A stretch of DNA of 63,950 nucleotides, filler included, from Collodictyon triciliatum (Eukaryota), in NCBI GenBank assembly GCA_043381765.1. It is 14 parts of 14 records of this genome, joined end to end, with 100 filler letters (N's around TTAATTAATTAA, not from the genome) between each part and the next. Parts side by side here need not be neighbours in the genome. Positions count along the whole stretch, not along the records: positions 1 to 4,644 come from JBHJMP010005890.1; 13 more parts are not named here. One strand, written 5' to 3'. A program made the position numbers and the translations under genes. Shown here piece after piece: positions 1 to 52,613 of this stretch (position 1 is the first letter of the stretch; each line of letters starts with the position of its first letter). Under the pieces are notes generated by a model. It searched no databases. It saw only the letters and a list, made by a program, of their open reading frames with translations, and was not told where the DNA came from.

Positions 1-185
1 CTTTGCAGAGACATCAAAAGTTGTTTAAACCGATCAAGTAGCTAACACTACCTAATCAAAGAGGTATGCTAAGCTCCGTGATGCGATGCCGCAAGGTGTT
101 GCTTTTTGCCCTTTTCTCATCCAATATCCATGCCATCGACCTTGTTCTTTTTTCGCCCCTTCATTCTTTCAATCACCTTCGTCAT
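1..185 (+). repeat. Left arm of a long inverted repeat (partner 2487-2671)
   Basis: 1-185 is the reverse complement of 2487-2671 with one mismatch (position 171). The left arm is cut by the window/scaffold start. Confidence 0.95.
13..107 (+). ncRNA. Candidate small ncRNA, copy 1 (unidentified)
   Basis: Identical to 2565-2659(-). Stem TACCT/AGGTA (49-66), hairpin GCGATGCC-GCAA-GGTGTTGC (83-102, GNRA loop, G-U pairs), then T5 (103-107). 5' end inferred from TATA spacing in copy 2. Confidence 0.5.
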
Positions 186-1072
186 CCTCTTCCACACATT
201 TTCCTCTTTCTCTTCCTCTTTCTCTTACACTACAGTAGCCATCTATATTCAAATACATCCAGGTTCTTAAACTTCTTTCTCCAATAACCCCACTTTTTAC
301 TGCTACAATATTCGTCTTTTCACACACCCTTCAATAAGACATCCGTCCAACCGGTGCTCCTGTCAATCATGTCTCCATTCTTGCATCACTCCTCACCCTC
401 CACTTTATCGGACCTTTACCCCTAGATTCATCTCAATCCTAATATCTTCCTCCACTTCTTGCTCACAAACTTAAGCTTGTAGTCGCCAAAGGATGGTATC
501 ATCCCAATGTACACGTTCAGCTTTTTCGCGTTACTTTCTTCTACTGGCTGGGTGTTGCTGTATTCACAAATCTCTCATTCTTCCTTCTCCGCAATCTAGC
601 TTCCAAGCGCTCACAATAGCGTATCGTCTTCGTCGCTTGGCATCTACAACATATTTACCGACTCTTTATCGTTGTTGTTTGGAATGTTGCGTTGTAATGC
701 TGGATAGATAAGGTATATCTTTGACAAGGTAATATAGCGCCACCGAAATATTTTATGTGTTGAGGTGGTGGCTATCTCGAGTGCCTTAACCTCGCCCGCT
801 TTATGACACATCTCTGATGACCAAAGCGTGCGAGCTGCCATCTTGTAGGCACCGAAGCGAGAGTCGCCTAATCAAACCGTCTTTACGCCAAGATGCAATA
901 CAGCGGCAAAGCAATCGCCCACCCGAAAGATGCGAAGCAATACGAACCTCTCTCTCACACAACCATTTTTCGTGTGGTGGTGGTGGTGTCAATGACTTCA
1001 GACCCTCATCTGGCACATACTTGATAAGAGGTTGTCGATTATTGTTATTCCTCTGTGTTTAAAATGCTGGGC

Positions 1073-1260
1073 GGTGAGCAGATTTCGGAAGTACTGCAAT
1101 ACCGAATCCACCCGTGACTGAGGGTCTGGCAAGCCAAACTCCTGCAGTCGCCCTGCAAAAATAAGTTTAATATCGTTGGCTCCGCGTGGGAGCCATATCA
1201 GATATTAAGCTGATAAGAACAGATACTACACTTGATCTTAGCCAAAAGGCCGAGAAGATA
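1073..1260 (-). ncRNA. U2: U2 spliceosomal snRNA
   Basis: Minus strand reads TATCTTCTCGGCCTTTTGGCTAAGATCAAGTGTAGTATCTGTTCTTATCAGCTTAATATCTGATA..., with branch-pairing GTAGTA, Sm site ATTTTTG and stem-loop IV loop TATTGCAGTA; about 188 nt. Confidence 0.97.
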
Positions 1261-2486
1261 CACCATGTTTCCAGATCAAGAAATTCCCAGTGTCCCAACC
1301 ATGTCACTATACCATGTCCTTGCATCACTCTCTGCTGATGGGCCTGGTGTAAACTCGTCATATGCGGACATCCCAACGCAATCATTTTTTAATTCACCTC
1401 CACACCCAGGCACATCAACCAATCCAATCACTCACACAACTTGCTGTCTCATTTAAACACAGTCAAAATAGCCTCACAGTCAATCGGATTGTTGTGTTAC
1501 GCATCAGCACGATACATGGGGTATACATACAGCTGTGAAGCGCTCAGCCTGCAACCATATGGCGGTGCTGCACTAAATTCCACATCTAGACACACCTACA
1601 AACGAAAGACCTTGCATCTTTGGCACCGTCCGCATCAGAGGCTTTTGATAGCCCGGCAGTTGTATACGTCGCCTACTACATATCTTCGGTGCCTACGTCC
1701 TATGCAATAAATGCAGTCACGGATTTATATAACGAGACACCAAAGGGACGAAAAAATACAATGATAGCACATGTCCGCTCGCCAAAATGAAAGATGGAGA
1801 AAAGTTATGTCACACACTTTGGGTGGGAGCCTACGGTAAATACGATAAATAGATGGATTGGAGAGCTCAAGCAAGAAAGATGGACACATCATGTCTCGGG
1901 TGTAGTGTGATGTTTATCAGAGCACCGTGAATGAGTAAAAAGTATCATAGCTTGCAATCACACAAGAAGATACGCCCCTCAAAGAATACCGATTTTGCGA
2001 GACAGGATATCAAATGCTGCAGACCTTTTGAAGGGAAGAGACCAATTGTAGCGCTTGATGATATTACAAAAGAAACGGTGCGGATGACTATAAAATACAA
2101 GGAAGTGGTGAGACATAGCTGATAGAAGCGAGAAAGCGAGAGCATCTTTTGTAAGTGCCAGTCGAGGAGCATCAATGTCGATGTATCGGATGATGAATAT
2201 GTTAGCCGATGTCAATTGCATCGCACTGAAGCAGGGGATGTTATAACGATAAGGGTATCTAGATAACATGAGCATCGGGGAAAGCATGATTTATAACGGG
2301 GAAGCAGGAAGCGACGGATGGACAAACGAATAGACAATGGAAGGCAGGTCGGGATGGGATGATTTATGGGCTCATAATTATGGAAGGGAGGCAGGGAAAT
2401 ACAAGAAAGAATTACTGCGGTCTTTGAGGAGAAACGGAACGGAGGGAAGAGAAAAGGTAAAAGGTTAGAGGAAGGAAGCGGTGGAT

Positions 2487-2671
2487 ATGACGAAGGTGAT
2501 GGAAAGAATGAAGGGGCGAAAAAAGAACAAGGTCGATGGCATGGATATTGGATGAGAAAAGGGCAAAAAGCAACACCTTGCGGCATCGCATCACGGAGCT
2601 TAGCATACCTCTTTGATTAGGTAGTGTTAGCTACTTGATCGGTTTAAACAACTTTTGATGTCTCTGCAAAG
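2487..2671 (-). repeat. Right arm of the inverted repeat (partner 1-185)
   Basis: 184/185 identity to the reverse complement of 1-185. Confidence 0.95.
2565..2659 (-). ncRNA. Candidate small ncRNA, copy 2 (unidentified)
   Basis: Same sequence as 13-107. Preceded on its own strand by TATATAT about 30 nt upstream and a CCCAC element about 65 nt upstream; ends in a GNRA hairpin plus T5. Confidence 0.5.
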
Positions 2672-2682
2672 TACCCATGCGC

Positions 2683-2725
2683 ATATATAGACCGGCACAG
2701 CACACACAGCAAACACACAGTGGGT
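2683..2725 (-). promoter_or_regulatory. Putative snRNA-type external promoter (CCCAC upstream element + TATA box)
   Basis: Minus strand ACCCAC (2725-2720) and TATATAT (2689-2683). Spacing resembles USE/PSE+TATA type-3 Pol III promoters (inference). Confidence 0.4.
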
Positions 2726-4400
2726 GCGCCTCTCTCATATGTCGACATACGCATTAGGTATCATCCCGCTGACATTCGATTTTTTTTTCGTTTTTGTTTT
2801 TTTTACACGTTTTCATTTTCTTGTTCTTTTACTTTTTTTNNNNNNNNNNNNNNNNNNNNNNNNNNNNNNNNNNNNNNNNNNNNNNNNNNNNNNNNNNNNN
2901 NNNNNNNNNNNNNNNNNNNNNNNNNNNNNNNNNNNNNNNNNNNNNNNNNNNNNNNNNNNNNNNNNNNNNNNNNNNNNNNNNNNNNNNNNNNNNNNNNNNN
3001 NNNNNNNNNNNNNNNNNNNNNNNNNNNNNNNNNNNNNNNNNNNNNNNNNNNNNNNNNNNNNNNNNNNNNNNNNNNNNNNNNNNNNNNNNNNNNNNNNNNN
3101 NNNNNNNNNNNNNNNNNNNNNNNNNNNNNNNNNNNNNNNNNNNNNNNNNNNNNNNNNNNNNNNNNNNNNNNNNNNNNNNNNNNNNNNNNNNNNNNNNNNN
3201 NNNNNNNNNNNNNNNNNNNNNNNNNNNNNNNNNNNNNNNNNNNNNNNNNNNNNNNNNNNNNNNNNNNNNNNNNNNNNNNNNNNNNNNNNNNNNNNNNNNN
3301 NNNNNNNNNNNNNNNNNNNNNNNNNNNNNNNNNNNNNNNNNNNNNNNNNNNNNNNNNNGTTTCGTCTTTCTTCATGGTAAGTAATGAGTAGTCCATTCCT
3401 TCATGAACCGAGCGGATATGCCGAATACACTGCGAACCGTGATTAAACCCGAAAGCGCTGCGAAAAGGACGTGACACTTATTGTGGACAACTTTGCACTC
3501 AGGACTCAAGATCCCTTTTTTTATTTTTGTAAGACATTAGGCCCGACCAAGATTCTACTTCACCTGATGTCTTTCGGACAGAAACAGTCCCCGTCGACCT
3601 TGCTCGAGTGAGGGAGATGTGGGAGTGTGTCGTAAGATATCTCCCACAGTATATCCAACCCCTGCTACCCACGCAACCGACCAACCAGTTGGGATGCCCA
3701 CCTGACCAACTCGCTATCACTGACTTCTCTCCAGTGCTACCCTCTCCACAGTAGTCTTCTCCTACTTGCGTTTGCTCTCTCCCATGCGCACTTTTTCAGG
3801 TCTTACGATGCGGAAAACTTGAAAATATGATTAAATGTATAACGTAGCACGAGTGATAAATATATCATAATCATGTCGAATCAATCGTATGAGGCTGAAA
3901 ACAAGGTAAACAGACATCCTGCTCAATACAAGTATGCGTGCCAGAGGACTGGTGCTTGACGAAAAATCCTACTCAAAATAAAATATTGAGCATATGCAAA
4001 AGTATGAATTTATCGGTCGATTATGGATGGGTGAATGTGCGCAAGACAAATATTACACTTACAATATCGTTGCTAATATTGTTAACAATCAGAGAAAAAT
4101 ACATCGTAATCCAAACATCACGGCTGCAAATTAAGGCAAGGATGCTGTGGCATATAACCATGAAAATGTTCAATGCCATGGAAAGGTATAAGAACTCATA
4201 CAATACGAAAAGCAAACGGAAAGAGGAGGTACACTTGTGAAGTAAGAGATTACGAAACATAAGGCATAAGTATGGACTCGTTGTATTTGTCTGTTTATGT
4301 ACTGCATTTCGATCTTTCAGAATCTCGAATATACTCGCAACCTCAGCCTCAGCTTCCACATTGAACCAAATGTCTATGCGAGTGTTATTGTGTCATGATT

Positions 4401-4440
4401 GATATTTATTTATTCTAGATATATAGAATAAATAAATATC
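4401..4440. terminator. Perfect 17-bp AT-rich hairpin
   Basis: GATATTTATTTATTCTA-GATATA-TAGAATAAATAAATATC is an exact inverted repeat; a role in 3'-end formation is inferred only. Confidence 0.5.
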
Positions 4441-4503
4441 AGATTATTTCATCCTCAATTGTTTTCTGCGTTTTTTTACTTATTATTATATCTAATTCAA
4501 TAT

Positions 4504-4644
4504 ATGGATGACGAAATGGATATATTGAACAAGTATTACAATGCACCCAAGCACACCAATTCATTTGCCGGACTCTGGGCGCTCGTAAAAGAATTTGGAA
4601 TTAAAAAAAAGACTATCGAGGAATTTCTCAAACAACAGCCCGAC
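4504..4644 (+). CDS. Polinton-type retroviral-like integrase, N-terminal fragment (truncated by scaffold end)
   Basis: MDDEMDILNKYYNAPKHTNSFAGLWALVKEFGIKKKTIEEFLKQQPD fits the L..YY.P....SF.G...L........V..(W/F)L..Q pattern of Polinton integrase N-termini. The DDE core is not visible. Confidence 0.6.
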
Positions 4645-23979: not shown

Positions 23980-26268
23980 ATGTCGCAAGAGCCCGTATTG
24001 GTAGAGGAGCCTCTGGACGGCCAAGCCGCAGCCCAGATCTTTGGCCAAGGAACCGGGTACACATACGACGATCTGATCCTACTGCCAGGACACATCGACT
24101 TTGCCCCCGACCAGGTGGTTCTCAAGAGCAAACTGACCCGCAACATCACGCTCAACTCGCCGCTTGTCAGCTCGCCCATGGACACAGTCACCGAAGCCAA
24201 AATGGCCATCCACATGGCGCTCTTTGGAGGCATCGGCTTTATCCACTACAACAACACGATCGAGGAGCAAGCCTCCGAGGTTTTCTCTTTTGCTTTTGGC
24301 CAACAACCCCGACCTGCTCTCTGAGAATTCAATACCATGTTCCTTGAGAGAGAGAGAGAGAGAGAGAGATAATAGCCATCATCAGAAGGGGTGCAAACAA
24401 GCGATCGGAGCCTGTCTGATCCGCCTGGCCAAGCAGTTGCTGATCCGTGTTTGTGCCTCACAGGTCCGCAAGGTCAAGCGCTACAAGAACGGCTTCATCA
24501 CAGACCCGCTTGTCCTCACGCCGAACCATCGCGTGTCCGACGTGCAGCGAATCAAGTTGCAGCACGGCTTCTGCGGAATCCCCATCACCGACAACGGCCG
24601 AATGGGTGGGAAGCTGCTCGGCATTGTGACCAACCGCGACATCGACTTTATCGAGGACAAGGAGCTCTTTCTTAGCGAGGTCATGACGACAGATCTTGTT
24701 GTGGGCCAAGAAGGCTGCACCCTCGACCAGGCCAATCGCATCCTGCGCGAAAGCAAGAAGGGCAAGGTAAGTATTATTGTCTTTGATACATCCTGCTATT
24801 GTATTCCATATTTAATTATCTTTATTCTGTTAATTTATTTACATGACTTTATTCTATAACTAAGAAAAATAAGAAAAAAATCAGGTATTTTAGGATTATG
24901 TCTCCCTGCGAGATGTGCTATTGTTCGTTCTTTTCACTAACATGTCATGACATTATTCTTGCGAAATGCATGTAGCTCCCTATCGTCAACGACCGTCATG
25001 AACTTGTTGCCCTCATTTCCCGCAACGATCTGCAAAAGAATCGTGACTTTCCTCTGGCTACCAAGGACAAAGGAAAGAAGCAGCTGCTTGTCGGTGCGGC
25101 TATTGGAACCCGTCCTGAAGATCGCACACGATTGGAGGCGCTTGTCCATGCCGGCGTGGATGTCATCGTGATTGATTCATCCCAGGTATCTGAGGGCAAC
25201 TATATTGCTGATATTCCTCTTTTTCTTCTTTCCATCTTTACATGTGTCTCCACTTTGTATGTTTCATCTGCGACGGTGACCTATGAACCACACGTCTCAC
25301 TTTTTGTCACCAACAACCCATCGGAATTCGACCGACTTTTAACGACGGACGACTACATTCAAATAGGGAGACTCTGTCTACCAAATCGACATGATTAAGT
25401 TCATCAAGCAAAAATACGAGCACTTGGACGTAATTGGCGGCAATGTGGTCACAAAGTCGCAGGCGTACCATCTCATCCAAGCTGGAGCCGATGGACTTCG
25501 TGTTGGAATGGGCGTCGGGTCAATCTGCACAACCCAAGAAGTCATGGCTGTTGGTCGCGCCCAGGCCACTGCTGTCTACGAGTGAGTCCATTCGCATTTC
25601 CTGTACCCAATCATTCCCGATATTTTGCTTCACAGGCACACTTTTCTGCCTTTTTTTTTTAAAAAAAAAAGAAACAAAAGAATGGGGCAGACGGTAAGAG
25701 ACATATGGGTAAAGCAAGAATGATTTCCCAATGTGTTTATGAGGTGTAAACACCAATACACGACGACACCACCAGGGTTTCTCGCTTCGCAAACCAGTTT
25801 GGAATCCCGGTCATCGCTGACGGAGGAATCCGAAACATCGGACACATCACAAAGGCGCTGTCCCTCGGCGCAAGCACTGTGATGATGGGTTCGCTCCTAG
25901 CCGGGACCGAGGAGACGCCCGGTGAGTACTTTTTCAAGGATGGGCTGCGCCTCAAGAAATACCGCGGGATGGGCAGCTCGGAGGCGATGAAGAAGGGCAG
26001 CGACACGCGCTACTTTTCGGAGAAGGAGAAAATCAAGGTGGCCCAGGGCGTGTCTGGCGCTGTTATGGACAAGGGCTCCATCCGCTATCTGCTGCCGTAC
26101 ATACTCCAGGGCATGAAGCACGGTCTCCAGGACCTCGGCGTTCGCTCCGTCGAGAAGCTGCGCGAGAATCTGCACGAGGGAAAGACCCGCTTCGAGATTC
26201 GGACGCACGCTGCCCAGTCCGAGGGCTCTGTCCACAGTCTCTACACATACGAAAAGAATCCCTTCTAA
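23980..26268 (+). CDS. IMPDH: Inosine-5'-monophosphate dehydrogenase, 5 exons
   Basis: [26 protein letters not shown] pair, DSSQ|GDS, catalytic [30 protein letters not shown]. Four GT-AG introns; stop TAA at 26266-26268. Confidence 0.97.
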
Positions 26269-26383
26269 GCGCTGCCATTTTGCGGCAGAACAAAATAAAA
26301 GTGAATGAGCCCGAAACGCGAGCGGTGCCGAAAGTGCCACGCAGCCGAGCGCCCAAGAGGTCGGAAAGCAAATGGTAAAAAAG

Positions 26384-26456
26384 TGCTCCGAGTGAGGATC
26401 GAACTCACGACCTTGGGATTATGAGACCCACGCTCTACCAACTGAGCCATCGAAGC
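26384..26456 (-). tRNA. tRNA-Met (CAT), elongator
   Basis: GCTTCGATGGCTCAGTTGGTAGAGCGTGGGTCTCATAATCCCAAGGTCGTGAGTTCGATCCTCACTCGGAGCA; G1:C72 and a TTC T-loop. Confidence 0.95.
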
Positions 26457-33469: not shown

Positions 33470-36400
33470 ATGAACGTTGATATTCGAAACAATACTATCA
33501 GTGTTGATGAGGTAAGCAATCATTTGATTAAATATTTTGACAATATTCTATAATCATCCTATTACAAAATATGGACGAATTGACACACTATTGCTCAGGT
33601 CTCTCCAAGATGGACCTCCCATCAAGCTGACCGCTCAACAGCCGGAAAATATACAATCACAAACGAAGTCGATGAAACATCAGATTTCCTCAGGTTGATT
33701 AAAAAGCTCTTTGATGTCTGCTCTGTTTGCCACAAACCATCCGAATTTTTGTTTTCGTTTATATTAATAAATTGGGTGATTTTTCTCATTATATTTTATC
33801 ATCCTTATTATCCAATAAATAATTATATGAGTGAAATAGTCCTTGTCTTCTAAATGGTGACCCTGGAAGTGGGTGTGATGGAAAAATTCGAGATGATGTT
33901 CACGGAGGGTTCAACGAACATACAAGAAATCAGTGTAATTCTTGATTTATTACCATTTTGATATTGACGTGAACTGTCCTAATATACATCAAATACAAGG
34001 CCACTGTCAATATTTAGATAGAGATGTTTCGATGATAGATGAACATGAAAGGGGCGGTCAAACTGCTATTCAGTCACCACTACCAGATTACTTTGGAAGA
34101 GGAATGTGCTCTGAACTTGTTATTTTTCCAAACATTGACCCAAATGTTCTGGATGATGAAATGTGCTTTAGAGAATCCATCGGTTATTCATTTCGCGGTG
34201 ATAAAGTGTATGAGGTGCGTTCAAATTCTAGAGGAGGGGGATGTACTGTATCATGCTCATCAAGGAAAAAAGTTGCTCCTGCTAGAATTCCAACTACTGA
34301 ACCAAACATTACTACCACCGAAAGTTTACAAATTCAGCCGCTTGTTGACGGGATGTCGAGGATTACCGCAGCAAACTCAACACCTGGTTCAAGTTCACCA
34401 AATATATCCTTACAACAGACCCAAGTGCTGACGTCTCAGTTGTTGATGAGCCCTACCAAGGAAGAGGATATGAAACTCGTTGAACGCCTTGTTGCACTTC
34501 ATATTTCTTTAGTTGAGAGACAGACTCAGAGCCTACGTGAACAGGCTGAGATTGCCGAGAAACAGGCAGCCATCCAGACTCAGAGCCAACGAGAACAAAG
34601 TGAATCAAACCAAAGACTGATTCAGGGCCTTATCGATCAGGTCACACGACTGCCTGCATCTGAGCAAACATCGCAAGTGATTGATTCATTGGTGCGCGCT
34701 ATTTCGCCACAAGGAGCATATTCGAGCTCTGGTCAAGCAAATGCAGCCATATTTTCAACCACGCTGCAATCTCAACTTCATGATAACGTTGTCACCAATA
34801 CAAGCCAACAATCCAGCGTTAATATTACTCCTATTACTCAATCGATTCCAACAAATCCTGTTGCAGTTCAACCAAAACCTCATAATTTTTCGCAAACCCC
34901 ACCTCAGCAAGGAGCAACACCGACAACACCGGCATCAAATCAGTCCGGAGCAAACCAACCGACAGGACAGCCTGCTGGCAGTGCGACAGAGACTCCACAA
35001 AGTGATGGGAACACAAATGCGCAGGCAAATGCAGGACCGAGTAATTCAACAATTTCTACACAAAGTGCTGGTAACACAAATCCGCAGGCAAATGCAGGAC
35101 CGAGTAGCGCAACAAACTCTCCACAAAGCGATGGTAACACAAATCCGCAGGCAAATGCAGGACCGAGTAATTCAACAAATTCTACAGAAAGTGCTGGTTA
35201 TACAAATCTTCAGGCAAATGCAGGAACAAGTAGTCCAACAAATCTCCCAGGAGAAACTCATGCGAATGCCTCCGAGCTTGCAAAAGCCATATCTAAGCAA
35301 CGAGACCGACAGTATGGAAATAATGCCGATAAAAAAAGAGCTCTTCGCATAATCAAGCTATTCATGAAGGAACAAACCGCTTGGGATGAGAGCTTGGAAG
35401 AACTCACTGCACTGGCCCCGGCAAGAGACAAACTCATTTCGGAGAAGCTGATAACCGCTATTGGCAGAATGATAGACGAAAAAATGGAAAAGCCGGACCG
35501 TTTGCTAAATGCCTTGAATACTGTTGTGGGGAATACACTGAAGGAAGATTTCGACCACACGCTGCTTGCTCAAGTCCTGGATATTCTGATAGACCGTGTC
35601 GGAACTCTCTTTGCTTCGGACGAGGCTTTATGTCAGAGGATATTGGACAGTCTGATTTCCATTCTGAATTCGCTATATGTTTCTGGAGCATCAGGAATTC
35701 CTAAAGAAAAATACAAATCATACAAGGAAACATTTGGACAGAGCTGGATCGATAAGAAAATTGAGACTCGTGGTGAAGAAATCGAGAGTAAAATGCAGAT
35801 TCAATATGTTCAGGCCAAGAAATCCTTGTTCTGTGAGCTACTGAAGCATATTGGCGATGGCCAGAGTCCAGTCGTGAAGAATCTGAAAATTGCTGGTAGA
35901 GTTGGACTCGGTCTGTTCAACGCTGCATCTGCTGCTTTCTCTTTCGACATCAGCGGCACTCTGGCATCATTGCAGGAGGTTGCTACCGCTGTTGGAGAAA
36001 TCGATATCAAAAAGAATTGGTTTACATTCTATAACTTGTTTCGTGTCAGTTTATTCGTCGGTGCCGATGAGGCGAAAAAAGCGTGGGATTCTCAATTTTC
36101 AGCGAAGAAGGACAAAGTTGGAGAAACGCTGGCATTCCTAATTATTGATACAATTTATGAATGCTATCTCCACAAATACAATAGCTCTGAGGGACAAAAA
36201 GTCCGCGAATTCCTGGAGCATATCACAAGTCATGAAAAATGGTTGAAAAGTGAGGTTATTAATCGATTTGTGGAATCAAAAAAGCAAGAAATGGCAGGAT
36301 ATAAGCCAAAAGGGTCAACATTACCTACAACTCTTTTTGAAAAGGCTGGTAAAGACGAAAGAACAATTCAAGACATCATCGAGAATATCAAGGAAGAGAC

Positions 36401-37807
36401 CATTCGAAATGAAGAATTCAAAAGTCGTTTTAATACGTACATCTCTGGACAAGCCGAAAGAATGGCGGAGAAAGGAAAGGTGTTTGATGCCCAAGAATAC
36501 ATCCTGAATTTCTTCACATCTGGAAATGAAAAAGTGCTGCTCATACTTGGCGATTCTGGCTCTGGAAAATCACTGTTACAACAGTATATTGTGCGATTGC
36601 TTTGGGAAACGTATGAATACGGAAAGACACATATTCCTTTGTATGTTGCTCTCACTTCGTTGGAAAAGCCCAGAGAAAACGCCATCGAGGAACTGCTTCT
36701 TTCTGAGAGTAAAAACAGCTTCTACATCCCAGACTCTGATTTTCGGGTCGAACATATCAAAGAACTGAAAAAGATGAAATTCATCATTTTCCTGGATGGA
36801 TACGATGAGATTGAAGATAGTGGTACATCTTTCTACAAATCAAATAAGCTTGAAGAATGGCCCAACTGCAAGTTTGTGATTGGATGCCGAAAGCAGTTTT
36901 TGGACAAAAAATCTCAGTACCAATCGCTGTTTGCACCCAAAGCCAATCATGGGTACTCTCTGGATGAAATATATCTGAGACCTTTTGAAACTAAGCAAAG
37001 GCTCGAATACTTCAACAAGTATACTGAGAGAAATCCCATTGAAGGATGGGAAAAAGGAGAAAAGTATGAGGAAGAGTTGAAGAAAATCAAGGAGCTTGAC
37101 GAATTGGCTGTCACTCCGTTTATGATTTTCATGGCAGCCACTACCCTGCCGTCCATACTGAAGGAAAGAGTTGAGTCGAAGTCAGGAGATAATGCAAAGA
37201 TGCTGCGAACAGACTTTCTAGAGAAGTTTTCGAGGAGATGGTTCGAACGCGAAAGAGAAAAGCTTGAAGAAAATTTGTCATTGAAGCAGAAAATGCCTGA
37301 GAATTTGCCAGGATTGCTTTGGATGAAGTGCAAAGATATTGCAGAAGTCATGTTCCAGAAAGGCCATCTTGCTTTGGAGTATGACAAAGTTGAGGGGAAG
37401 GCAAAGAAGCATGATTACGATGAGTTTTTCCATCCCAATCCAGACCATATGATTGACGGTGAGCCAACTTATTCAGTCTTTGTGCTACGATGTGCACCCA
37501 TTAAGAAATCTAGTGCTACAACGTATGAGTTCTTTCACAAATCACTCTACGAATTCTTTGCTGCTGAATACATCAAAGATGAAATCAATAGTTCTGATGC
37601 AGAAAATGAAGCTTCTGCCCAACCATCAACTGAAGCTCAAAATGTTGCAACTTCCTCTGAATCCGTGAATTGTATGCCTGAAAAATCTGATGCGAAATCA
37701 CCAAGTTTCAAGCTTTTCAATGCTGTTCATTCTGTGATGAAATCAAAAGTGAAGACGAATGTTCTGGATAAAAAGCTTGAGCCTGCCATTCTGCTCAATC
37801 TGAGTGA
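33470..37807 (+). CDS. NACHT (STAND) NTPase, 3' partial; exons about 33470-33511, 33599-33693, 33840-33935, 34000-end
   Basis: Walker A VLLILGDSGSGKS (about 36549-36572), Walker B FIIFLDGYDE, KFVIGCR, TPF, winged-helix YEFFHKSLYEFFAAE. Three small 5' exons join in frame through GT-AG introns; start codon uncertain. Confidence 0.88.
34995..35245 (+). repeat. 60-bp (20-aa) coding tandem repeat, 4 copies
   Basis: (P/T)QS(D/A)GNTN(A/P)QANAGPS(N/S)..N-type units inside the NACHT gene. Confidence 0.85.
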
Positions 37808-42644: not shown

Positions 42645-45600
42645 TTCAAAATTATCTCGTCATCACGAAATCATACACTAGACACTCAAAGTGGAGAAAT
42701 ACATATCCAGGCACTAGACACAAGACGCCTCAAGAGGTTAAGATCAGAAGAATTATCGTTTATGCCCAAAAATCCTTCTAAAAAAGACTTCGGATTCACA
42801 AAGACACCAATCTATGAAAACGATTCAAGAGTGGCAAGTAATACACAAGACTTTGAATTCACAAAGACGTCAATCTATGAAAACGAATCAAAAGAGGAAA
42901 GTAATACACAAGACTTTGGATTCACAAAGACACCAATATATGAAAACGAATCAAGAGTGGCAAGTAATACACAAGACTTTGAATTCACAAAGACGTCAAT
43001 CTATGAAAATGAATCAAAAGTGGAAAGTAATACACAAGACTTTGGATTCACGAAGACACCAATATATGAAAACGAATCAAGAGTGGCAAGTAATACACAA
43101 GACTTTGGATTCACAAAGACACCAATCTATGAAAACGATTCAAGAGTGGCAAGTAATACACAAGACTTTGGATTCACAAAGACACCAATATATGAAAACG
43201 AATCAAAAGTAGCAAGTAATACACAGGATTTTGGATTTACAAAGACACCAATCTATGAAAACGAATCAAAAGTGGCAAGTAATACACAAGACTTCGGATT
43301 CACGAAGACGTCAATCTATGAAAACGATTCAAGAGTGGCAAGTAATACACAAGACTTTGGATTCACGAAGACACCAATCTATGAAAACGAATCAAAAGAG
43401 GAAAGTAATACACAAGACTTTGGATTCACGAAGACACCAATCTATGAAAACGATTCAATAGTGGCAAGTAATACACAAGACTTTGAATTCACGAAGACAA
43501 CAATCTATGAAAACGAATCAAAAGAGGAAAGTAACACACAAGACTTTGGATTCACGAAGACACCAATCTATGAAAACGATTCAAGAGTGGCAAGTAATAC
43601 ACAAGACTTTGGATTCACAAAGACACCAATCTATGAAAAAGATTCAAGAGAGGCAAGTAGTACACAAGACTTTGGATTCACGAAGACACCAATCTATGAA
43701 AACGAATCAAGAGTGGCAAGTAATACACAAGACTTTGGATTCACGAAGACATCAATCTATGACAACGATTCAAGAGAGGCAAGTAATACACAAGACTTTG
43801 GATTCACAAAGACACCAATCTATGAAAGTGAATCAAGAGAGGCAAGTAGCACACAAGATTTTGCATTTACAAAGACACCAATCTATGAAAACGAATCAAA
43901 AGAGGCAAGCAACACACAAGATTTTGCATTTACAAAGACACCAATCTATGAAAACGAATCAAAAGAGGCAAGTAATACACAAGATTTTGGATTCACAAAG
44001 ACACCAATCTATGAAAGTGAATCAAGAGAGGCAAGCAACACACAAGATTTTGCATTTACAAAGACACCAATCTATGAAAACGATTCAAGAGAGGAAAGTA
44101 ATACACAAGACTTTGGATTCACAAAGACACCAATCTATGAAAGTGAATCAAAAGAGGAAAGTAATACACAAGACTTTGGATTCACAAAGACGTCAATATA
44201 TGAAAATGAATCAAAAGTAGCAAGTAATACACAAGACTTTGGATTCACAAAGACGTCAATCTATGAAAATGGATCAAAAGAGGAAAGTAATACACAAGAC
44301 TTTGGATTCACAAAGACACCAATCTATGAAAAAGATTCAAGAGTGGCAAGTAATACACAAGACTTTGGATTCACAAAGACACCAATCTATGAAAACGAAT
44401 CAAAAGTAGCAAGTAATACACAGGATTTTGGATTTACAAAGACACCAATCTATGAAAACGAATCAAAAGTGGCAAGTAGCACACAAGACTTTGGATTCAC
44501 AAAGACGTCAATATATGAAAATGAATCAAAAGTAGCAAGTAATACACAAGACTTTGGATTCACAAAGACACCAATCTATGAAAACGAATCAAAAGAGGAA
44601 AGTAATACACAAGACTTTGGATTCACAAAGACGTCAATCTATGAAAATGGATCAAGAGTGGCAAGTAATACACAAGACTTTGGATTCACAAAGACACCAA
44701 TCTATGAAAACGAATCAAAAGAGGAAAGTAATACACAAGACTTTGGATTCACGAAGACACCAATCTATGACAACGATTCAAGAGAGGCAAGTAATACACA
44801 AGACTTTGAATTCACAAAGACACCAATCTATGAAAGTGAATCAAGAGAGGCAAGTAGCACACAAGATTTTGCATTTACAAAGACACCAATCTATGACAAT
44901 GAATCAAAAGAGGCAAGTAATACACAAGACTTTGAATTTACAAAGACATCAATATATGAGCCAACTATAACAATTACTCATCATGGCATCTCATATTCAA
45001 CGCCGAAGAAAAATAATTTCCAAACAGAATCAAACATGTTATATTTATCAGAATCAAAAACAGTTCCAAAGAAAAAGTCTAGTGTGTCATATCCATCCAT
45101 AAAAACATCGTTATTTGAAAATCCGTCTCAGTCCCAATCCCAATCCCAATCCCAATCCCAATCCCAATCCCAATCCCAATCTCAATCTCAATCCCAGTCT
45201 CAATCCCAATCTCAATCCCAATCTCAGTCTCAGTCTCAGTCCCAATCTCAATCTCAATCCCAATCCCAATCCCAATCCCAATCCCAATCCCAATCCCAAT
45301 CCCAATCCCAATATCAGTCCCAATCCCAATCCCAATCCCAATCCCAATCCCAATCTCAATCCCAATCTCGATCTCTATCTGAGACAAATGGAACACCTTC
45401 TCAATCCAAATCTCAATCTCAATCTCAATCAACATCAAACTCAATATCTCAATCGTTATCTGAGACAAATGAAACACCTTCTCAATCCCAGTCTCAATCT
45501 CAGTCTCAGTCTCAATCGCAGTCTCAATCCCAATCTCAGTCTCAGTCTCAGTCTCAATCCCAATCTCAATCCCAATCCCAGTCTCAATCCCAATCTCAAT

Positions 45601-47277
45601 CTCAATCCCAATCTCAATCTCAGTCTCAGTCGCAATCTCAGTCTCAATCTCAGTCCCAATCGCAATCTCAATCGCAGTCTCAGTCTCAATCCCAATCCCA
45701 ATCTCAATCCCAATCTCAATCCCAATACCAATCTCAATCCCAATCTCAATCCCAATCTCAATCCCAGTCTCAATCTCAATCCCAGTCTCAATCCCAGTCT
45801 CAATCTCAGTCTCAGTCCCAATCTCAATCCCAGTCTCAATCCCAATCTCAGTCCCAGTCCCAATCTCAATCTCAATCTCAATCTCAATCCCAATCCCAAT
45901 CCCAATCTCAATCCCAATCTCAATCTCAATCCCAATCCCAATCCCAATCTCAGTCTCAGTCTCAATCCCAATCTCAGTCTCAGTCTCAGTCTCAGTCCCA
46001 ATCTCAATCTCAATCCCAGTCACAGTCACAGTCTCAGTCTCAGTCTCAGTCTCAATCTCACTCTCAATCCCAATCCCAATCCCAATCTTCCATTCCAGAT
46101 CCCGTCATCACATCGGTGTCCACGAACACCGGCCCTGCTGTTGGTGGAACCCCCCTCACGATTTATGGCTCCGGATTTCTATCGTTTTCATCTTCTCCCC
46201 AAGTATTTATCGGCGAATTTGAGGCTATCGTTGGGTTCCACACTGGAAAGTTGATATCTTGCATCTCTCCTCCCGGTATAGGTCGAGACCTTCCCATCAA
46301 AGTCATAAGCGGGAGCTATGTTCTCGAGGCTACTTCTACTTGGGATTATTCCCCTCCTATTGTCAGCTCTATAAATCCATCGAGGACTTCTTTATCCGGA
46401 AACTTTCCTGCCACTATTACTGGTGAAAATTTCGGACCGCCTTCTTCACCCAATCCCTCGGTGACCATCGGAGATGTCATTTGCGCAAATGTTTTGCGAT
46501 ACAGCGATACAAATCTAGTTTGTATTTTGGGTGCTGCTCAGTTTCCATTTACTGGTGCAGTCATAGTTACGGTAGGAGGGCAAATGTCAAACACAGATGT
46601 TTCATTTGAGTACTTTGAGAGCACTATTTTGTCCATCGCACCCAACCTAGGTTCGGCCGAGGGTGGAACAAAGGTTACCATTGTCACAAAAGAAGTCTCA
46701 GACGGTACATACCCGATTGAATTTCATTATGTGGAAGATGGAGCCGAGAAATCTACAACTATTAATGGCGCAGAACTTGTTAACAATCTTGTTCATTTTA
46801 ACATTCCATCTCCAACTCAACAGTTCTACTCAAGCCAAACCGCAAAGGTGATTTCGATTCGATTTAAATATGCGCTCACAACAACTTAATTGACCATTGC
46901 TTATTTCCTATATATCCTCTCAAAATTATAAGAATCATGTTTTTATACATTCCTAACAAAGTACAAAAAAAAATCTGCAAACCTTAGATTAATATATCGC
47001 TTTCCGACTCGCAATCTCTCGGACCGGAGCTCTTTTACATCTATTCAGTACCTGTGCTGTCATCATTCGAGCCTACCGACGAGGACCACACCAAATCCTT
47101 TAACGTAACTTTGGTCGGGTCCAATTTCGTGGAGATGTTCCCAAAGTACGCCGTCTGCACAATCGAAGGACAAAATCAAGTAAACCTGTTAATTAAGCCC
47201 TTATTTTGTAAATATCCCCAAAACTCGTAAACAACATCTCAATTTTACAACTTGAATTCGATAACAGGGTGCTTTGG
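42645..47277 (+). CDS. Large repeat-rich IPT/TIG-domain (probably cell-surface) protein, partial at both ends
   Basis: Frame is open from the scaffold start. 21-aa repeats, (SQ)n tracts, then IPT/TIG domains ([61 protein letters not shown]). Further exon at 46988-47179. Confidence 0.85.
42786..44960 (+). repeat. 63-bp coding minisatellite ([21 protein letters not shown]), about 34 copies
   Basis: In-frame tandem units with limited substitutions. Confidence 0.96.
45126..46088 (+). repeat. (TCNCAR)n coding repeat giving two poly-SQ tracts
   Basis: Mostly synonymous variation between units; the tracts are separated by SLSETN(G/E)TP spacers. Confidence 0.93.
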
Positions 47278-48108: not shown

Positions 48109-48180
48109 TCCGATATGGTGTAGTCGGTAGCACACGTGGCTTTCACCCACGCAACCCGGGTTCGATTCCCGGTATCGGAA
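48109..48180 (+). tRNA. tRNA-Glu (TTC)
   Basis: TCCGATATGGTGTAGTCGGTAGCACACGTGGCTTTCACCCACGCAACCCGGGTTCGATTCCCGGTATCGGAA, followed by a T5 tract. Confidence 0.95.
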
Positions 48181-48512: not shown

Positions 48513-51500
48513 TCAATTGTATTTCTTGAGTCTCAGGTCCTGGATGACGAAGGAGAGATATGCAAGGGCCGTTGTGGCGATGAAGCAGAGGATGACATAG
48601 AGGGCTGACTCTCCATACTCATATCCATCGTACGCGTAAAGTCTCAAAACATCCTAAAATTTTCAAGAATTCAGAACGGTTGCAGGAACTAAAAAAATAA
48701 TGATAAGCATGCTCCGATAAACACGATGAAGTAAACTTTGTAAATGTTTTGAAAAGCGTGTTCATTTTATCATAAACTGTGCAATCATTTAAGTAAAAAG
48801 ACCATACCTCTCCAGTTTTGAAGGTGCAGATAGGAGGGTCATCAAATACGAATCCCTTCAAGGTTTTTATGTTTATTATTATTTTAATGTGATGAAATCA
48901 CGGTTAAATTGCCGGAAGATATTATTGAATTATGATTATTTAAGCTGATTGTGCCTCGTATCACATGCAATCATATATCGTCTATTTCAATCTAATAGCA
49001 GACTACCTCAAACTCGTTAACAGCCAAGGCTTGAACACCCCATCTGGTCATGGAGATTTCCAGAATCCAAGCAACTGATGCAGCCATTCGCTAGGTACGA
49101 AAATCATCATATTTTCTTATGATCAAATTATCTGCTGATGAAACGGATATTTTTGCAACAACAACAAAAAAAAATTAATAAAACTTACATCCTGTATGAC
49201 GAGATATCCTGTTAAGAGAATATACGATGCACTAACAACGGGTCCGAAGATAGCTCCAATTATTGAGTTTGGCACAATAGAACCGATGAGGAGACTCAGA
49301 GACTGCGATGATTTTAAAAAATGAATGAGGAAAATTTACGGGAGAGATGTATATATTAATAGTTGTTTTGTCTTATCATGAATGAAAACGTACATGCGAC
49401 GAGTTGTACGTGACAAACACAATTAAAAAGTATTTGAAGAAATGCTCTGAGCCGTTGCGCATGTCAACCAAATAGTACATTATTGGGCAAAAGAGAAGGG
49501 AGGCCACGGTAACTGGAATGCGGTCTGTAAAGAATCTCGAGAAAAGATACGAATGCAGGTGATAATCCCGCTTTCTTCGGTCTCTTATAAACAAATCCCT
49601 TTCCCCCGGGATAACTTGCATCAGTTCGATACTCGAAATAACTAGCGGACCAAGCGTAGAATACAAACAAGTGCTCATACGACCTCGGGTGCCACGATAA
49701 GTGTCCAGTTGGTTGAAGATAACAATACCTCCCAGAAAAGACTTTTCAAAATACATTCGATTAGGAAAAATTATGCTTAATACATTCTCTTGTCTTATGC
49801 TTTAAATCTATGAAATGATGAACACTTATATATATATATATGTTTGAATTGGAGCTTATGGGTAATTGCTGATAAGGCGAAAGTTCAACAGTGTTCGTAC
49901 AAGTATGATAGCGACGATGGCACGACTAGCCAGTTCAATCGGGTTTCTTCTGAAGCCAGTGAGGTTTCTCCAAAATAAAAGTTTAACTTGGTCGACTGCC
50001 GTTGGTCTTTGTGATTGGGATAAATCTCATTAGAAAAAAACTTGAAATCATTTAGGACAAGGTTTCAGTCCAAAAAAAATTGAATGGATTTGTATTACTT
50101 GTCTGAATCCTTGGCCAATTTTGAATCATCGATAGGACTGTATTGGCTTTGAATGTTTAACTTTGCAGACATTTCCTTACCAATGGCAGAAGTGGGATAT
50201 TTCTGAAATGGATTGTTGCAGGCAGGAAAATTGTCTTAATGAATTTTACAACTTCATCCGCAATTAATTTATTATTATGAACGAGACGTGTCTTGAATTG
50301 CAACTTTTTTATATATATATTTTTTTAATATATATACCTGTCTTAGCTTCCGAGTCTCTTCTAGACTGGGTGAAACTTTAAGAGTTTTGGTACCGACAGA
50401 TGGGTCGGCCAACTCGGCAATTGCCTTGGCTGGATTTGTCCGGTCAGAGAATCCGTACCTGGGCCATTTTCATTTCAATTGAAACCAAAATAAAATTGAA
50501 AACAAAAGAGAAGGGGAGATAGCGTAGTGCATAGCAAAAATTGATAGAAAGTAAATGAGCCCAGTTTACCCAACAGCTGAGAAATACTCTTTGCAGCGAT
50601 CGACGGGTCCAAAGTAAAGGGTTTCGCCCTCAGACAAAACAACCAACGAGTCCAAAAGATAAAAGGACTCGATTCTGTCGTACAGACAAAGTTAGTTTGC
50701 TGTTATCAAAAAGAGATGGTTGGCACACAACTAAATCGTATTGAACTATTGGCTGAATACTGTACATACGAAGGATTATCTAGGGTGAGGATGACTGTGC
50801 GTCCTTGTTGCGCGAGTCTTTTGAGGAAATAAATCACCGCAAGCGACGAGTCACTGTCAAGTCCAATAGTTGGCTCATCGAGGAAAATCAATCCAGGTCG
50901 TGTGACTAATTCGATTCCGATACTGACTAGCCTCTTGTCCCCTTTTTCAAGTCCTTCGATAAAAAAATTACCGATAGGAGTATCCCTGGTCTTGAATATT
51001 TTTTGTGTGATGAGAAGCTCGATGGATGCTTTCTTGGTAGTGTCAGAGAACCCAAACGCATAGAAATCATATGTTCAAATTTCGCATATATTTGTCCTGT
51101 GCTGTTTTACCTTGGTGAGGCCCATTAGGTCGATGAGTTCATCAACAATTTGGGACTTTTCATCCGCAGCCATAGACTATTCAAGAAGGGAAGCATCATT
51201 AAGCCCATAATCAAAAGAAAAAATAGCAGAGGAGAATGAAGTCTGAAGCCCTATATTGTGATTCTTTTCATATCTGGTGGCGAAATAGTAACCTATTGCT
51301 CAATCTTACCTTTGGAAGCCTAAGGGAAGCATAAAAGCTCAGCGTTTCATGCACAGTGAATGCTTCTGGGAGTTTGTGATCCTTAGTCGCATAACTTGAT
51401 ACCTGGGTCAAACCCGTGTTGAAAGTCAGGATGATAAGGTCAAGTATTTGTAGGCTGATAATGATTAAATTGCAAACCTTGCAAAGAGTTGTATGGTCGA

Positions 51501-52011
51501 TAGGGGCGTTGTTAAGCTCCACAACTCCATCAACGTTCTCGGGATGGTCAATGCTGCCGGCGAGGATGTCTAATAGAGTCGTTTTTCCAGATGATGAGCT
51601 GCCCATGAGTGCACACAGTTGGCCACATCGAGCCTCTCCAGAGACATTCTATTGATGAGGTACAGGTGGAAATATGATAGAAGATAGTATCATTGACAAA
51701 CTTAGTTATCTACACACAAGGTTGTGATTTTTCCAAAAGGTTGGGTGAGAACAAGACCCTGTATATGATACACAGCTATACCTCGATCTTGCCATTTCGG
51801 CTTATTGAGACTTTTTCCTTATCTTTTTAATTTCGTTCTTTTTAAAGTATTTGTGTCTGATGAAAAAAATCAAGAGTTTGGGAATATGTGTACTTGAATG
51901 ATGCTCTTGAAAGGGCCATTCTTTCCTTCGCGCGCTTTGTAGGAAATGTTTTTCCACACAAGGTCGATTTCAGACGTGCGTTTGAATCCCGCGCTGCCGC
52001 TTGGTTGTTCA
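48513..52011 (-). CDS. ABCG-family transporter (NBD then TMD), multi-exon, 5' partial
   Basis: DLVWKNISY; ALMGSSSSGKTTLLDILAG; FTVHETLSFYASLRLP; IFLDEPTIGLDS; LSEGETLYFGP; ERDLFIRDR..Y; QALAVNEF; stop TGA at 48513-48515. Confidence 0.9.
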
Positions 52012-52541: not shown

Positions 52542-52613
52542 GGGCTCAACCGGGAATTGAACCCGGGACCTCTCGCACCCAAAGCGAGAATCATACCACT
52601 AGACTATTAAGCC
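52542..52613 (-). tRNA. tRNA-Pro (TGG)
   Basis: GGCTTAATAGTCTAGTGGTATGATTCTCGCTTTGGGTGCGAGAGGTCCCGGGTTCAATTCCCGGTTGAGCCC. Confidence 0.95.

Follow-up and report, generated by a model that had tools for sequence, protein, structure and literature searches.

The trans-splicing of spliced leaders (SL) is patchily distributed, with cases in Metazoa, Euglenozoa, dinoflagellates, Perkinsea, and Rhizaria (PMC6053224), and whether it arose many times or has an ancient origin is still debated (PMC7986045). The trans-spliceosome uses U2, U4, U5, U6, and an SL snRNP that replaces U1 (PMC6053224). The search tool SLIDR expects an Sm site 20-60 nt past the donor, with AT{4,6}G as the default pattern, and the SL-B type of Hydra carries Sm-like variants such as AAUUUUGA (PMC7986045).

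We analyzed a window of protist DNA (the whole stretch, 63.9 kb) in which two inverted gene copies enclose the U2 snRNA gene. Our results show that these copies are very probably spliced-leader RNA genes, the first 50-51 nt of which are spliced onto many mRNAs. The leader is longer than the 39 nt of trypanosomes (PMC2879531) and lies near the upper end of the span of 16-52 reported in PMC6053224. The initial annotation had proposed a lineage-specific small RNA beside U2; the RNA is real, expressed, lineage-specific, and without a curated family, but its identity as a spliced-leader RNA had been missed. RNA contigs join its first 50-51 nt to many different mRNAs.

Results

Separate contigs of ~4.6 kb, connected by linkers of the form N44-TTAATTAATTAA-N44, make up the window, and the SL/U2 contig comprises positions 1-4644 only. 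A repeat search identified two inverted arms of 185 nt that are 99% complementary and spaced 2301 nt apart (Table 1). In the alignment, 184 of 185 positions are identical; the sole mismatch, 171 versus 2501, is far outside the RNA, and the similarity ends sharply past position 185, which is 173 nt downstream of the start site. A 29-nt probe from the repeat unit gave two matches in the window compared with none in 100 shuffles, and the leader sequence occurs only twice within the 63.9-kb window. Copy 1 runs rightward and copy 2 leftward, both facing inward to U2, whose Sm site, AUUUUUGC, is found at U2 position 100. The repeat search, the alignment, and the Rfam match to U2 thus bear out two claims of the initial annotation, namely that nearly identical inverted copies enclose U2 and that they are convergent. 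Upstream of copy 2, at a distance of 180 nt, a gap of 519 N begins at position 2840. Because the contig breaks within the SL RNA gene, the gene is probably multicopy.

Table 1. Features of the SL/U2 contig, with positions in the window
Feature	Position	Strand	Remark
Repeat arm 1 = SL RNA gene copy 1	1..185	+	contig start cuts the gene 12 nt upstream of +1
51-nt leader exon of copy 1, same sequence as in copy 2	13..63	+	donor GT at 64-65
Copy 1 intron part	64..107	+	donor; stem-loop I 3' half to 82; stem-loop II (GCAA loop) 83-102; U5 103-107
Copy 1 T6 run, candidate end of a ~140 nt transcript	148..153	+	sequence
U2 snRNA gene	1069..1261	-	Rfam RF00004, 170.7 bits, full-length model 1-192
Repeat arm 2 = SL RNA gene copy 2, complete	2487..2671	-	repeat search, alignment
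Copy 2 T6 run, candidate end of a longer transcript	2519..2524	-	sequence
Copy 2 U5 run, context C-UUUUU-GC	2565..2569	-	starts 38-39 nt past the donor
Predicted stem-loop II, 8 bp (three G-U), GCAA loop	2570..2589	-	fold prediction
Predicted stem-loop I, encloses the donor	2590..2639	-	RNA positions 21-70
Copy 2 5' splice donor GT (AG|GTATGC)	2607..2608	-	pairs with exon CACUACCU in predicted stem I
Copy 2 leader exon, 51 nt, without ATG	2609..2659	-	cDNA contigs span 2658-2609
Upstream region	2660..2774	-	also in freshwater metagenome X1 record 2 (2655-2774, 2 differing letters)
TATATAT	2683..2689	-	-30..-24 relative to +1 = 2659
CCCAC, putative upstream promoter element	2720..2724	-	-65..-61 relative to 2659

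The TATA box at -30 and the CCCAC motif at -65, both described previously, are present when positions are counted from +1 = 2659. This base, an A with the TATA box 30 nt upstream, is likely the first transcribed one. An A-to-T reading at 2659 may reflect either a modified nucleotide or a difference between strains. Two 151-nt contigs of the freshwater metagenome X1 cover 2506-2774 with 5 differing letters in total. Comparison of the SL and U2 promoters revealed no common word of 8 bases or more; the only notable 7-mer in common, CATATGA, lies at -82 in SL and at -103 in U2 and is no evidence of a common promoter element.

The sequence itself holds a clue to an SL RNA: 51 nt past the start lies an AG|GTATG whose donor is predicted to pair with an upstream CACUACCU. 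Single-sequence prediction for the 95-nt RNA gave a fold of -22.4 kcal/mol (z = -1.67) in which stem I contains the paired donor; 11 of 200 shuffled sequences were equally stable. The 8-bp stem with its GCAA loop directly before T5, also recognized in the initial annotation, appears in both the minimum-free-energy and the centroid fold. The donor GTATGC resembles those of the cis-introns in the window's IMPDH gene (GTAAGT, GTATCT, and GTGAGT).

Downstream of the hairpins, CTTTTTG begins 38 nt past the donor, inside the 20-60 nt range expected by SLIDR, with a C instead of the leading A of the pattern, and UUUUUGC is common to the SL U run and to the Sm site of U2 on the same contig. For the U5 run, both an Sm-like site and a terminator are candidate roles, and the mature 3' end may lie either at U5 (~95 nt) or at T6 (about 136-141 nt).

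We searched positions 1-2820 against Rfam at the gathering score and at E values up to 10. The SL unit was unmatched, and U2 was the sole real match; two others (E 0.63 and E 2) fall outside the RNA and far under the gathering score.

Transcript evidence was drawn from assembled Logan contigs, as opposed to raw reads, aligned to 2300-2839. Contigs matching this interval numbered 832 of 814,179 in run X18, 722 of 1,032,498 in X20, and 540 of 3,786,010 in X5. Runs X18 and X20 come from one study, and their RNA status is a guess accompanied by a cDNA-type adaptor; X5 is an Illumina metatranscriptome from a different study. Among the 26 pieces listed (a further 2070 matched), 21 are leader-only pieces from these three runs. 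The majority of these (16 of the 21 listed) stop exactly at 2609, and the remaining ones at 2602, 2607, 2608, 2610, and 2612. At the other end, every one of the 16 X18 and X20 pieces listed begins at 2658. The break point in the RNA contigs corresponds to AG|GTATGC, where the genome goes on with GTATGC past 2609.

Among the matches listed, at least 22 contigs extend past the 3' end of the leader (8 in X18, 9 in X20, and 5 in X5), with a median length beyond it of 116-255 except for one 31-letter entry. Where more than one contig was pooled, agreement among the listed continuations was just 0.48-0.60, indicating that the continuations differ from one another. One X18 contig of 914 nt has the leader at its end. 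Contigs with a part off 2300-2839 numbered 24, 22, and 23 per run, most others being short and leader-only; because so few extend off the interval, the distinct targets shown are in the tens, not hundreds.

On the 5' side, the same adaptor-like sequence was present in 19 of the listed X18 and X20 contigs, 15 of them at 2658. Full-length cDNA ends have one more G beside the adaptor than truncated ends. Template-switch chemistry is the basis for reading such an extra G as a hint of a cap, and we take it as no more than a hint here. The only RNA-library contig among the matches listed that crosses the donor is one from X5 (2550-2634), with 26 letters on the exon side, below the bridging threshold of 31. 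Three X5 contigs contain T5 (2550-2634, 2543-2579, and 2500-2579); each falls short of 31 letters on at least one side, and carry-over of DNA is possible.

Coverage gaps, which prove nothing, occurred on the intron in X18 and X20, upstream of 2659 in X5, and below 2498 in all runs. Summed depth in the leader bins was ~1,000 times that of the intron bin; this is no measure, since depth is one figure per contig. Word shares were 0.31-0.39 in X2-X4 and X6-X17 and 0.08 in X19, which is no evidence of habitat or spread.

We scanned public contigs for the exon-plus-donor pattern. There were no matches in prokaryote genome contigs and none in viral contigs; JGI metagenome contigs gave a single match, L001. 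This contig was rejected as a copy of the SL RNA gene because it is cDNA-like: 24 nt of the leader tail are followed by a 34-nt UTR and a complete 387-aa ORF, and it diverges from the SL RNA gene directly after the common donor GT. The scan thus yielded no diverged copy of the gene. The ORF encodes pyruvate dehydrogenase E1-alpha (PF00676), with 81% identity to EP00002_Diphylleia_rotans and 58% to the next best match. The IMPDH gene of the window is 80-96% identical to that of D. rotans, exon by exon. The SL/U2 contig itself (1-4644) carries no protein gene linking it to Diphyllatea, and the link between the SL and this lineage runs through L001 and the other contigs of the same chain. With the IMPDH of the window at 80-96% identity to D. 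rotans and the pyruvate dehydrogenase E1-alpha of L001 at only 81%, the leader may well be common to at least two diverged diphyllateans.

Discussion

Together, these data revealed a leader present on many different transcripts, a break located exactly at the donor, and a 5' end mapped by cDNA adaptors. Since one leader occurs on many transcripts and is encoded by a small donor-bearing gene, we infer that the join acts in trans. Three of the features expected of the SL class were found at this locus: a common leader on unrelated mRNAs, a small separate gene in which a GT donor follows immediately, and, in the single-sequence prediction, the placement of that donor inside the first stem-loop.

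In the mechanism that we propose, the SL RNA gene would be transcribed on the minus strand from a TATA-containing promoter, starting at 2659/2658. The RNA would open with the AUG-free leader exon (50-51 nt). Next would come a canonical donor, AG|GUAUGC, that stem-loop I would hold by means of exon CACUACCU, then another hairpin, with GCAA as its loop, and finally a U-rich run, CUUUUUGC. The spliceosome would then use the SL donor in trans. By analogy with described systems, the SL RNA may be transcribed by Pol II and capped, the U run may be bound by Sm proteins, and branch and acceptor chemistry would be that of trans-splicing; the same analogy would extend to a role in resolving polycistrons, if any.

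The same SL RNA might instead be produced by Pol III from a U6-type TATA promoter, as a 95-nt RNA ending at T5 with a 3' hairpin and an oligo-U tail, in which case the U run would be a terminator and La/Lsm site rather than an Sm site. The TATA at -30 together with the upstream CCCAC and the stable hairpin immediately before T5 are consistent with this biogenesis, as is the sequence past the run, which is pyrimidine-rich and shows no 3' stem-loop in the predicted fold, the 141-nt fold being only as stable as shuffles (z = -0.02). We nevertheless regard a Pol III origin as rather unlikely. By analogy, a leader that supplies mRNA 5' ends would be expected to carry a Pol II-type cap, and the additional G at full-length relative to truncated cDNA ends may point in the same direction. 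The three X5 contigs cross T5, albeit with fewer than 31 letters on at least one side, and a variant in X1 (2565 A>C, reading CUUUUGG) cuts the run to T4 followed by GG. Moreover, the arms are still 99% identical across a further 78 nt past T5.

A different proposal would deny the leader function altogether: a Pol III small RNA with another role, U6-class or regulatory, whose 50 nt appear on mRNAs through a library artefact such as template switching. The lack of an Rfam match would be compatible with such an RNA, and chimeras can form in libraries of the template-switch type, to which X18 and X20 belong. However, random template switching has no reason to halt at a splice donor, whereas 16 of the 21 leader-only pieces among the matches listed break at the same base of AG|GT. 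The leader-mRNA join is also seen in X5, an Illumina library from another study, and the independent public contig L001 has the leader before a short UTR and a complete ORF. An artefact is therefore very improbable. We consider it extremely improbable that a mobile element contributed the arms as its terminal inverted repeats, or that they are a chimera of assembly or amplification, the gene-like features being incidental. The inverted arrangement, the position of one arm at the contig end, and the start of an ORF at 4432-4644, with a possibly integrase-like look, would suit such an origin. Against it, the arms differ by one base and are separately flanked; on its outer side, arm 2 adjoins the promoter, which an independent metagenome carries as well (X1, 2655-2774); and the arms are transcribed and spliced. 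A palindromic chimera would continue into the interior, but the similarity stops 173 nt past the start site.

Our preferred reading, SL RNA genes feeding a trans-splicing pathway, has consequences beyond this locus. Full-text literature searches covering Diphylleia, Collodictyon, Diphyllatea, and CRuMs turned up no account of nuclear SL trans-splicing, and the leader sequence string was absent from the papers searched. This is probably the first SL system for the CRuMs supergroup; the lineage concerned, the relatives of Diphylleia, is one of freshwater protists. We also favor, with fair though less assurance, the broader proposal that Diphyllatea, and hence CRuMs, possess an undescribed nuclear SL trans-splicing system, with an unusually long 50-51-nt leader common to at least two diverged members and SL genes that are interleaved with U2 and whose abundance lets them assemble from many freshwater metagenomes. 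CRuMs form a deep branch beside Amorphea, and an SL system there would be an independent data point for the debate on origins; if the leader also occurs in Mantamonas or rigifilids, the system would trace back to a very deep branch of eukaryotes adjacent to Amorphea. The finding accounts for the 5' ends of diphyllatean transcripts and is relevant to the annotation of 5' UTRs and possible polycistrons in diphyllatean genomes. As a lineage-specific tag of 50 nt, the leader could be used to pull full-length diphyllatean mRNAs from freshwater metatranscriptomes or single-cell libraries.

Compared with the SL RNAs of trypanosomes and nematodes, the RNA described here has the same order of a 5' leader exon followed by a GT donor, a donor paired (here by prediction) in the first stem-loop, a U-rich site downstream, and a leader found on many mRNAs. 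It shows no sequence or covariance-model similarity to them (Rfam, E up to 10), and only two stem-loops are predicted ahead of the U run, with no further one past it. The organism is a protist of the CRuMs supergroup, and the gene flanks U2; SL RNA genes in other lineages are linked to 5S rRNA genes.

With U6-class (type 3) Pol III genes, the locus shares a TATA near -30, possibly an upstream element as well, and a terminal hairpin followed by a T run. It differs from them in that its RNA contains a 5' splice donor that is in use, provides mRNAs with their 5' ends, matches neither U6 nor any other Rfam family, and is represented by RNA-library contigs across T5 (fewer than 31 letters on at least one side). 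A U6-class Pol III reading draws on the TATA box and the T5 run only, and it is a poor match for an RNA from which mRNAs receive their 5' ends.

Within the lineage, the only trans-splicing that we found in print is that of a group II intron in the mitochondrion of Diphylleia rotans (PMC4779616). That case involves an organellar split intron joining the pieces of one gene, without a leader, a spliceosome, or a small nuclear RNA gene (PMC4779616). Hydra SL-B is similar in combining a long leader with a short RNA (46-bp SL and 107-bp SL RNA; PMC7986045) but belongs to an animal lineage and is unrelated in sequence, and the U run here follows C, not A. The SL of Paulinella micropora, a member of Rhizaria and thus of another supergroup, differs in its leader of 28-33 bases and its polyadenylated SL RNAs (PMC6053224). 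It was found in the same manner, from common mRNA 5' ends (27 genes) together with genomic SL RNA genes (PMC6053224), and that evidence resembles ours in both type and scale.

A gene pair flanking U2 very probably encodes spliced-leader RNA

A repeat search showed that the first 185 nt of the window recur in inverted orientation, the copies being 99% complementary. Alignment placed the single mismatch at 171 versus 2501, and the similarity breaks off sharply at 185. The copies are convergent and face a full-length U2 snRNA gene identified by Rfam, confirming two near-identical inverted copies enclosing U2, as the initial annotation had described.

Thirteen linkers (N44-TTAATTAATTAA-N44; 4645–61575) separate contigs of decreasing size (4644, 4640, 4639 ... 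4632 nt). The gene pair is therefore confined to the 4644-nt contig starting at position 1, the contig end truncates copy 1 just 12 nt before its start site, and the pair has no physical linkage to the later protein genes. Any apparent gene linkage across a linker is likewise spurious. Numerous contig ends in the window are microsatellites or homopolymers, and some interrupt long ORFs.

We consider it very probable that the two arms are paired genes for a spliced-leader (SL) RNA. The proposal of a lineage-specific small RNA clustered with U2 was right about the kind of gene and its neighbor but missed its identity.

Features of the window
Feature	Position	Strand	Remarks
SL RNA gene, copy 1 (very probable)	1-185	+	185 nt
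SL RNA gene, copy 2 (very probable)	2487-2671	-	185 nt
U2 snRNA gene	1069-1261	-	RF00004, 170.7 bits
CATATGA, SL side	2735-2741		-82 of SL gene
CATATGA, U2 side	~1358-1364		-103 of U2
ORF start	4432-4644	+	reaches contig end; possibly integrase/transposon protein N-terminus, by resemblance
ArsB/CitMHS-type transporter	11094-13416	+	two exons; other contig
IMPDH with CBS domain	24001-26265	+	five exons; other contig
tRNA-Met	26383-26456	-	~120 nt beyond IMPDH stop
NACHT ORF	33939-37805		interrupted by contig end
IPT/TIG ORF	42645-46886		interrupted by contig end
tRNA-Glu	48109-48180		other contig
ABC transporter pieces	49379-51648	-	other contig
tRNA-Pro	52542-52613		other contig

Predicted RNA layout and promoter

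Read by eye, the RNA strand comprises 51 nt without ATG, with AG at the end, followed by GTATGC. In the predicted 95-nt fold, exon CACUACCU pairs within stem-loop I with the bases flanking the exon–intron boundary (two on the exon side, five on the intron side); a second predicted hairpin and a U5 run follow, reproducing the 8-bp stem, GCAA loop, and T5 noted initially. Its free energy is −22.4 kcal/mol, with z = −1.67; shuffling the sequence gave equal stability in 11 of 200 cases. As modeled, the arrangement of exon, donor, stem-loops, and U run is that of a spliced-leader RNA.

TATATAT lies 30 nt upstream of the start at 2659/2658 and CCCAC at −65 to −61; relative to 2659, these agree with the initial estimates of about −30 and −65. 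CATATGA, in a similar 12-nt context (GTCSRCATATGA), occurs upstream of both the SL and U2 genes and may be a shared snRNA-type element; two genes with unequal spacing prove nothing. Rfam covariance searches, a check named in the initial annotation, returned no match for the unit in the whole window at the gathering score or in 1–2820 at E up to 10, placing it outside every curated RNA family.

The leader is common to many transcripts

Public runs were searched for window 2487–2760, part of which was present in 20 of the 24 runs listed; none of the 24 contains half or more of its words. We aligned to window 2300–2839 the contigs of X18 and X20 (two organisms, same study), X5 (an Illumina metatranscriptome from a separate study), and X1 (a freshwater metagenome). 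Matching contigs numbered 832 of 814,179 records in X18, 722 of 1,032,498 in X20, and 540 of 3,786,010 in X5. The three RNA runs account for 21 leader-only pieces among the 26 aligned pieces listed (2070 further pieces exist). Of these 21, sixteen end at 2609, the final G of AG/GT, and the remainder at 2602, 2607, 2608, 2610, and 2612. Every listed piece from X18 and X20 (16/16) starts at 2658.

Short leader-only pieces form the majority of aligned contigs, and off-stretch parts occur in only 24, 22, and 23 contigs per run. At least 22 contigs (8 X18, 9 X20, 5 X5) extend past the leader 3′ end, and 16 further rows of loose ends exist. Among the loose ends listed, median lengths are 116–255 letters, save one of 31, and mutual agreement is just 0.48–0.60, indicating that the continuations belong to different transcripts. 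One 914-nt X18 contig carries the leader at its extreme end. The leader is common to many transcripts, its match to the gene breaks exactly at the donor, and its 5′ end is mapped.

Nineteen X18/X20 contigs enter a common adaptor-like sequence 5′ of the leader, 15 of them at 2658. This sequence is probably a template-switch cDNA adaptor, which would mark the RNA 5′ end and make both libraries cDNA. Full-length cDNA ends in these runs have T beside the leader where window 2659 (minus strand) is A; possible explanations of this T are strain variation, an extra base, or modification of the cap-adjacent first nucleotide. Four Gs precede the adaptor at full-length ends versus three at truncated ends.

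Length of the SL RNA

The U run (C-UUUUU-GC) begins 38–39 nt past the donor, and is perhaps an internal, candidate Sm-like site within a longer transcript that perhaps ends at the T6 run (2524–2519), ~136–141 nt in length. UUUUUGC is common to the run and the Sm site of the adjoining U2 gene, X1 has CUUUUGG in place of CUUUUUG there, X5 contigs include the run and continue to 2550 and 2500, and repeat conservation extends to +173. However, no stem-loop can form downstream of the run, the 141-nt fold is not better than shuffles, and no X5 contig reaches 31 letters to both sides of the run. SLIDR expects the Sm site 20–60 nt past the donor, with AT{4,6}G as default motif (PMC7986045, excerpt); the run lies inside this range but does not match the motif. 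A 95-nt SL RNA terminated at the T run appears rather unlikely.

Transcription of the SL RNA would begin at 2659/2658, downstream of TATATAT; its fold would present the donor within stem I, and the spliceosome would join the 50–51-nt leader to acceptors near pre-mRNA 5′ ends. We infer the polymerase, cap, Sm binding, acceptor sites, and any polycistron-resolving role. Elsewhere, SL trans-splicing uses U2, U4, U5, and U6, with the SL snRNP replacing U1 (PMC6053224, excerpt).

A leader-bearing mRNA and the host lineage

A scan for the leader tail plus GT across JGI metagenome contigs gave a single match, the 1293-nt cDNA-like contig L001, which diverges from the SL gene immediately past the common GT. 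Its 24 nt of leader tail are followed by a 34-nt untranslated stretch and a complete 387-aa pyruvate dehydrogenase E1-alpha ORF. The best match of its product, a protein from a Diphylleia rotans transcriptome, shows 81% identity (second-best match, 58%), and the IMPDH exons of the window are each 80–96% identical to D. rotans IMPDH. These similarities indicate that the assembly is diphyllatean (CRuMs) and that the independent leader-bearing mRNA is likewise diphyllatean. From the sequences, 81% versus 80–96% identity suggests two different diphyllateans having the same leader.

The IMPDH introns are GT-AG, ~170–200 nt long, with donors GTAAGT, GTATCT, and GTGAGT; the leader's GTATGC is therefore an ordinary donor in this organism. 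A pyrimidine tract with several AGs upstream of the IMPDH ATG could be a trans-splice acceptor region. X1 contains the SL gene and promoter (2506–2774) with few differences, including at 2565 and 2539, and 16 further runs from 15 other studies have a similar word share.

Comparison with known spliced-leader systems

Before this gene pair, the CRuMs supergroup had probably yielded no evidence of SL trans-splicing. Published lineage lists, in excerpt, name Metazoa, Euglenozoa, dinoflagellates, Perkinsea, and Rhizaria, with CRuMs unlisted. In the literature searched, we found neither the exact leader string nor a report of nuclear SL trans-splicing in this lineage; an earlier description may still exist. 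The words "leader", "splic", and "UTR" are absent from a recent diphyllatean transcriptome paper (PMC11603278). The only Diphylleia trans-splicing in the literature searched concerns a mitochondrial group II intron, unrelated to the SL system (PMC4779616, excerpt).

By function, the RNA is an SL RNA, outside all curated SL RNA families. Its 50–51-nt leader lies at the top of the published 16–52 range (PMC6053224, excerpt). It is comparable with Hydra SL-B, with a 46-bp leader in a 107-bp RNA (PMC7986045, excerpt), and with Paulinella, whose leader of 28–33 bases was discovered from 27 genes (PMC6053224, excerpt).
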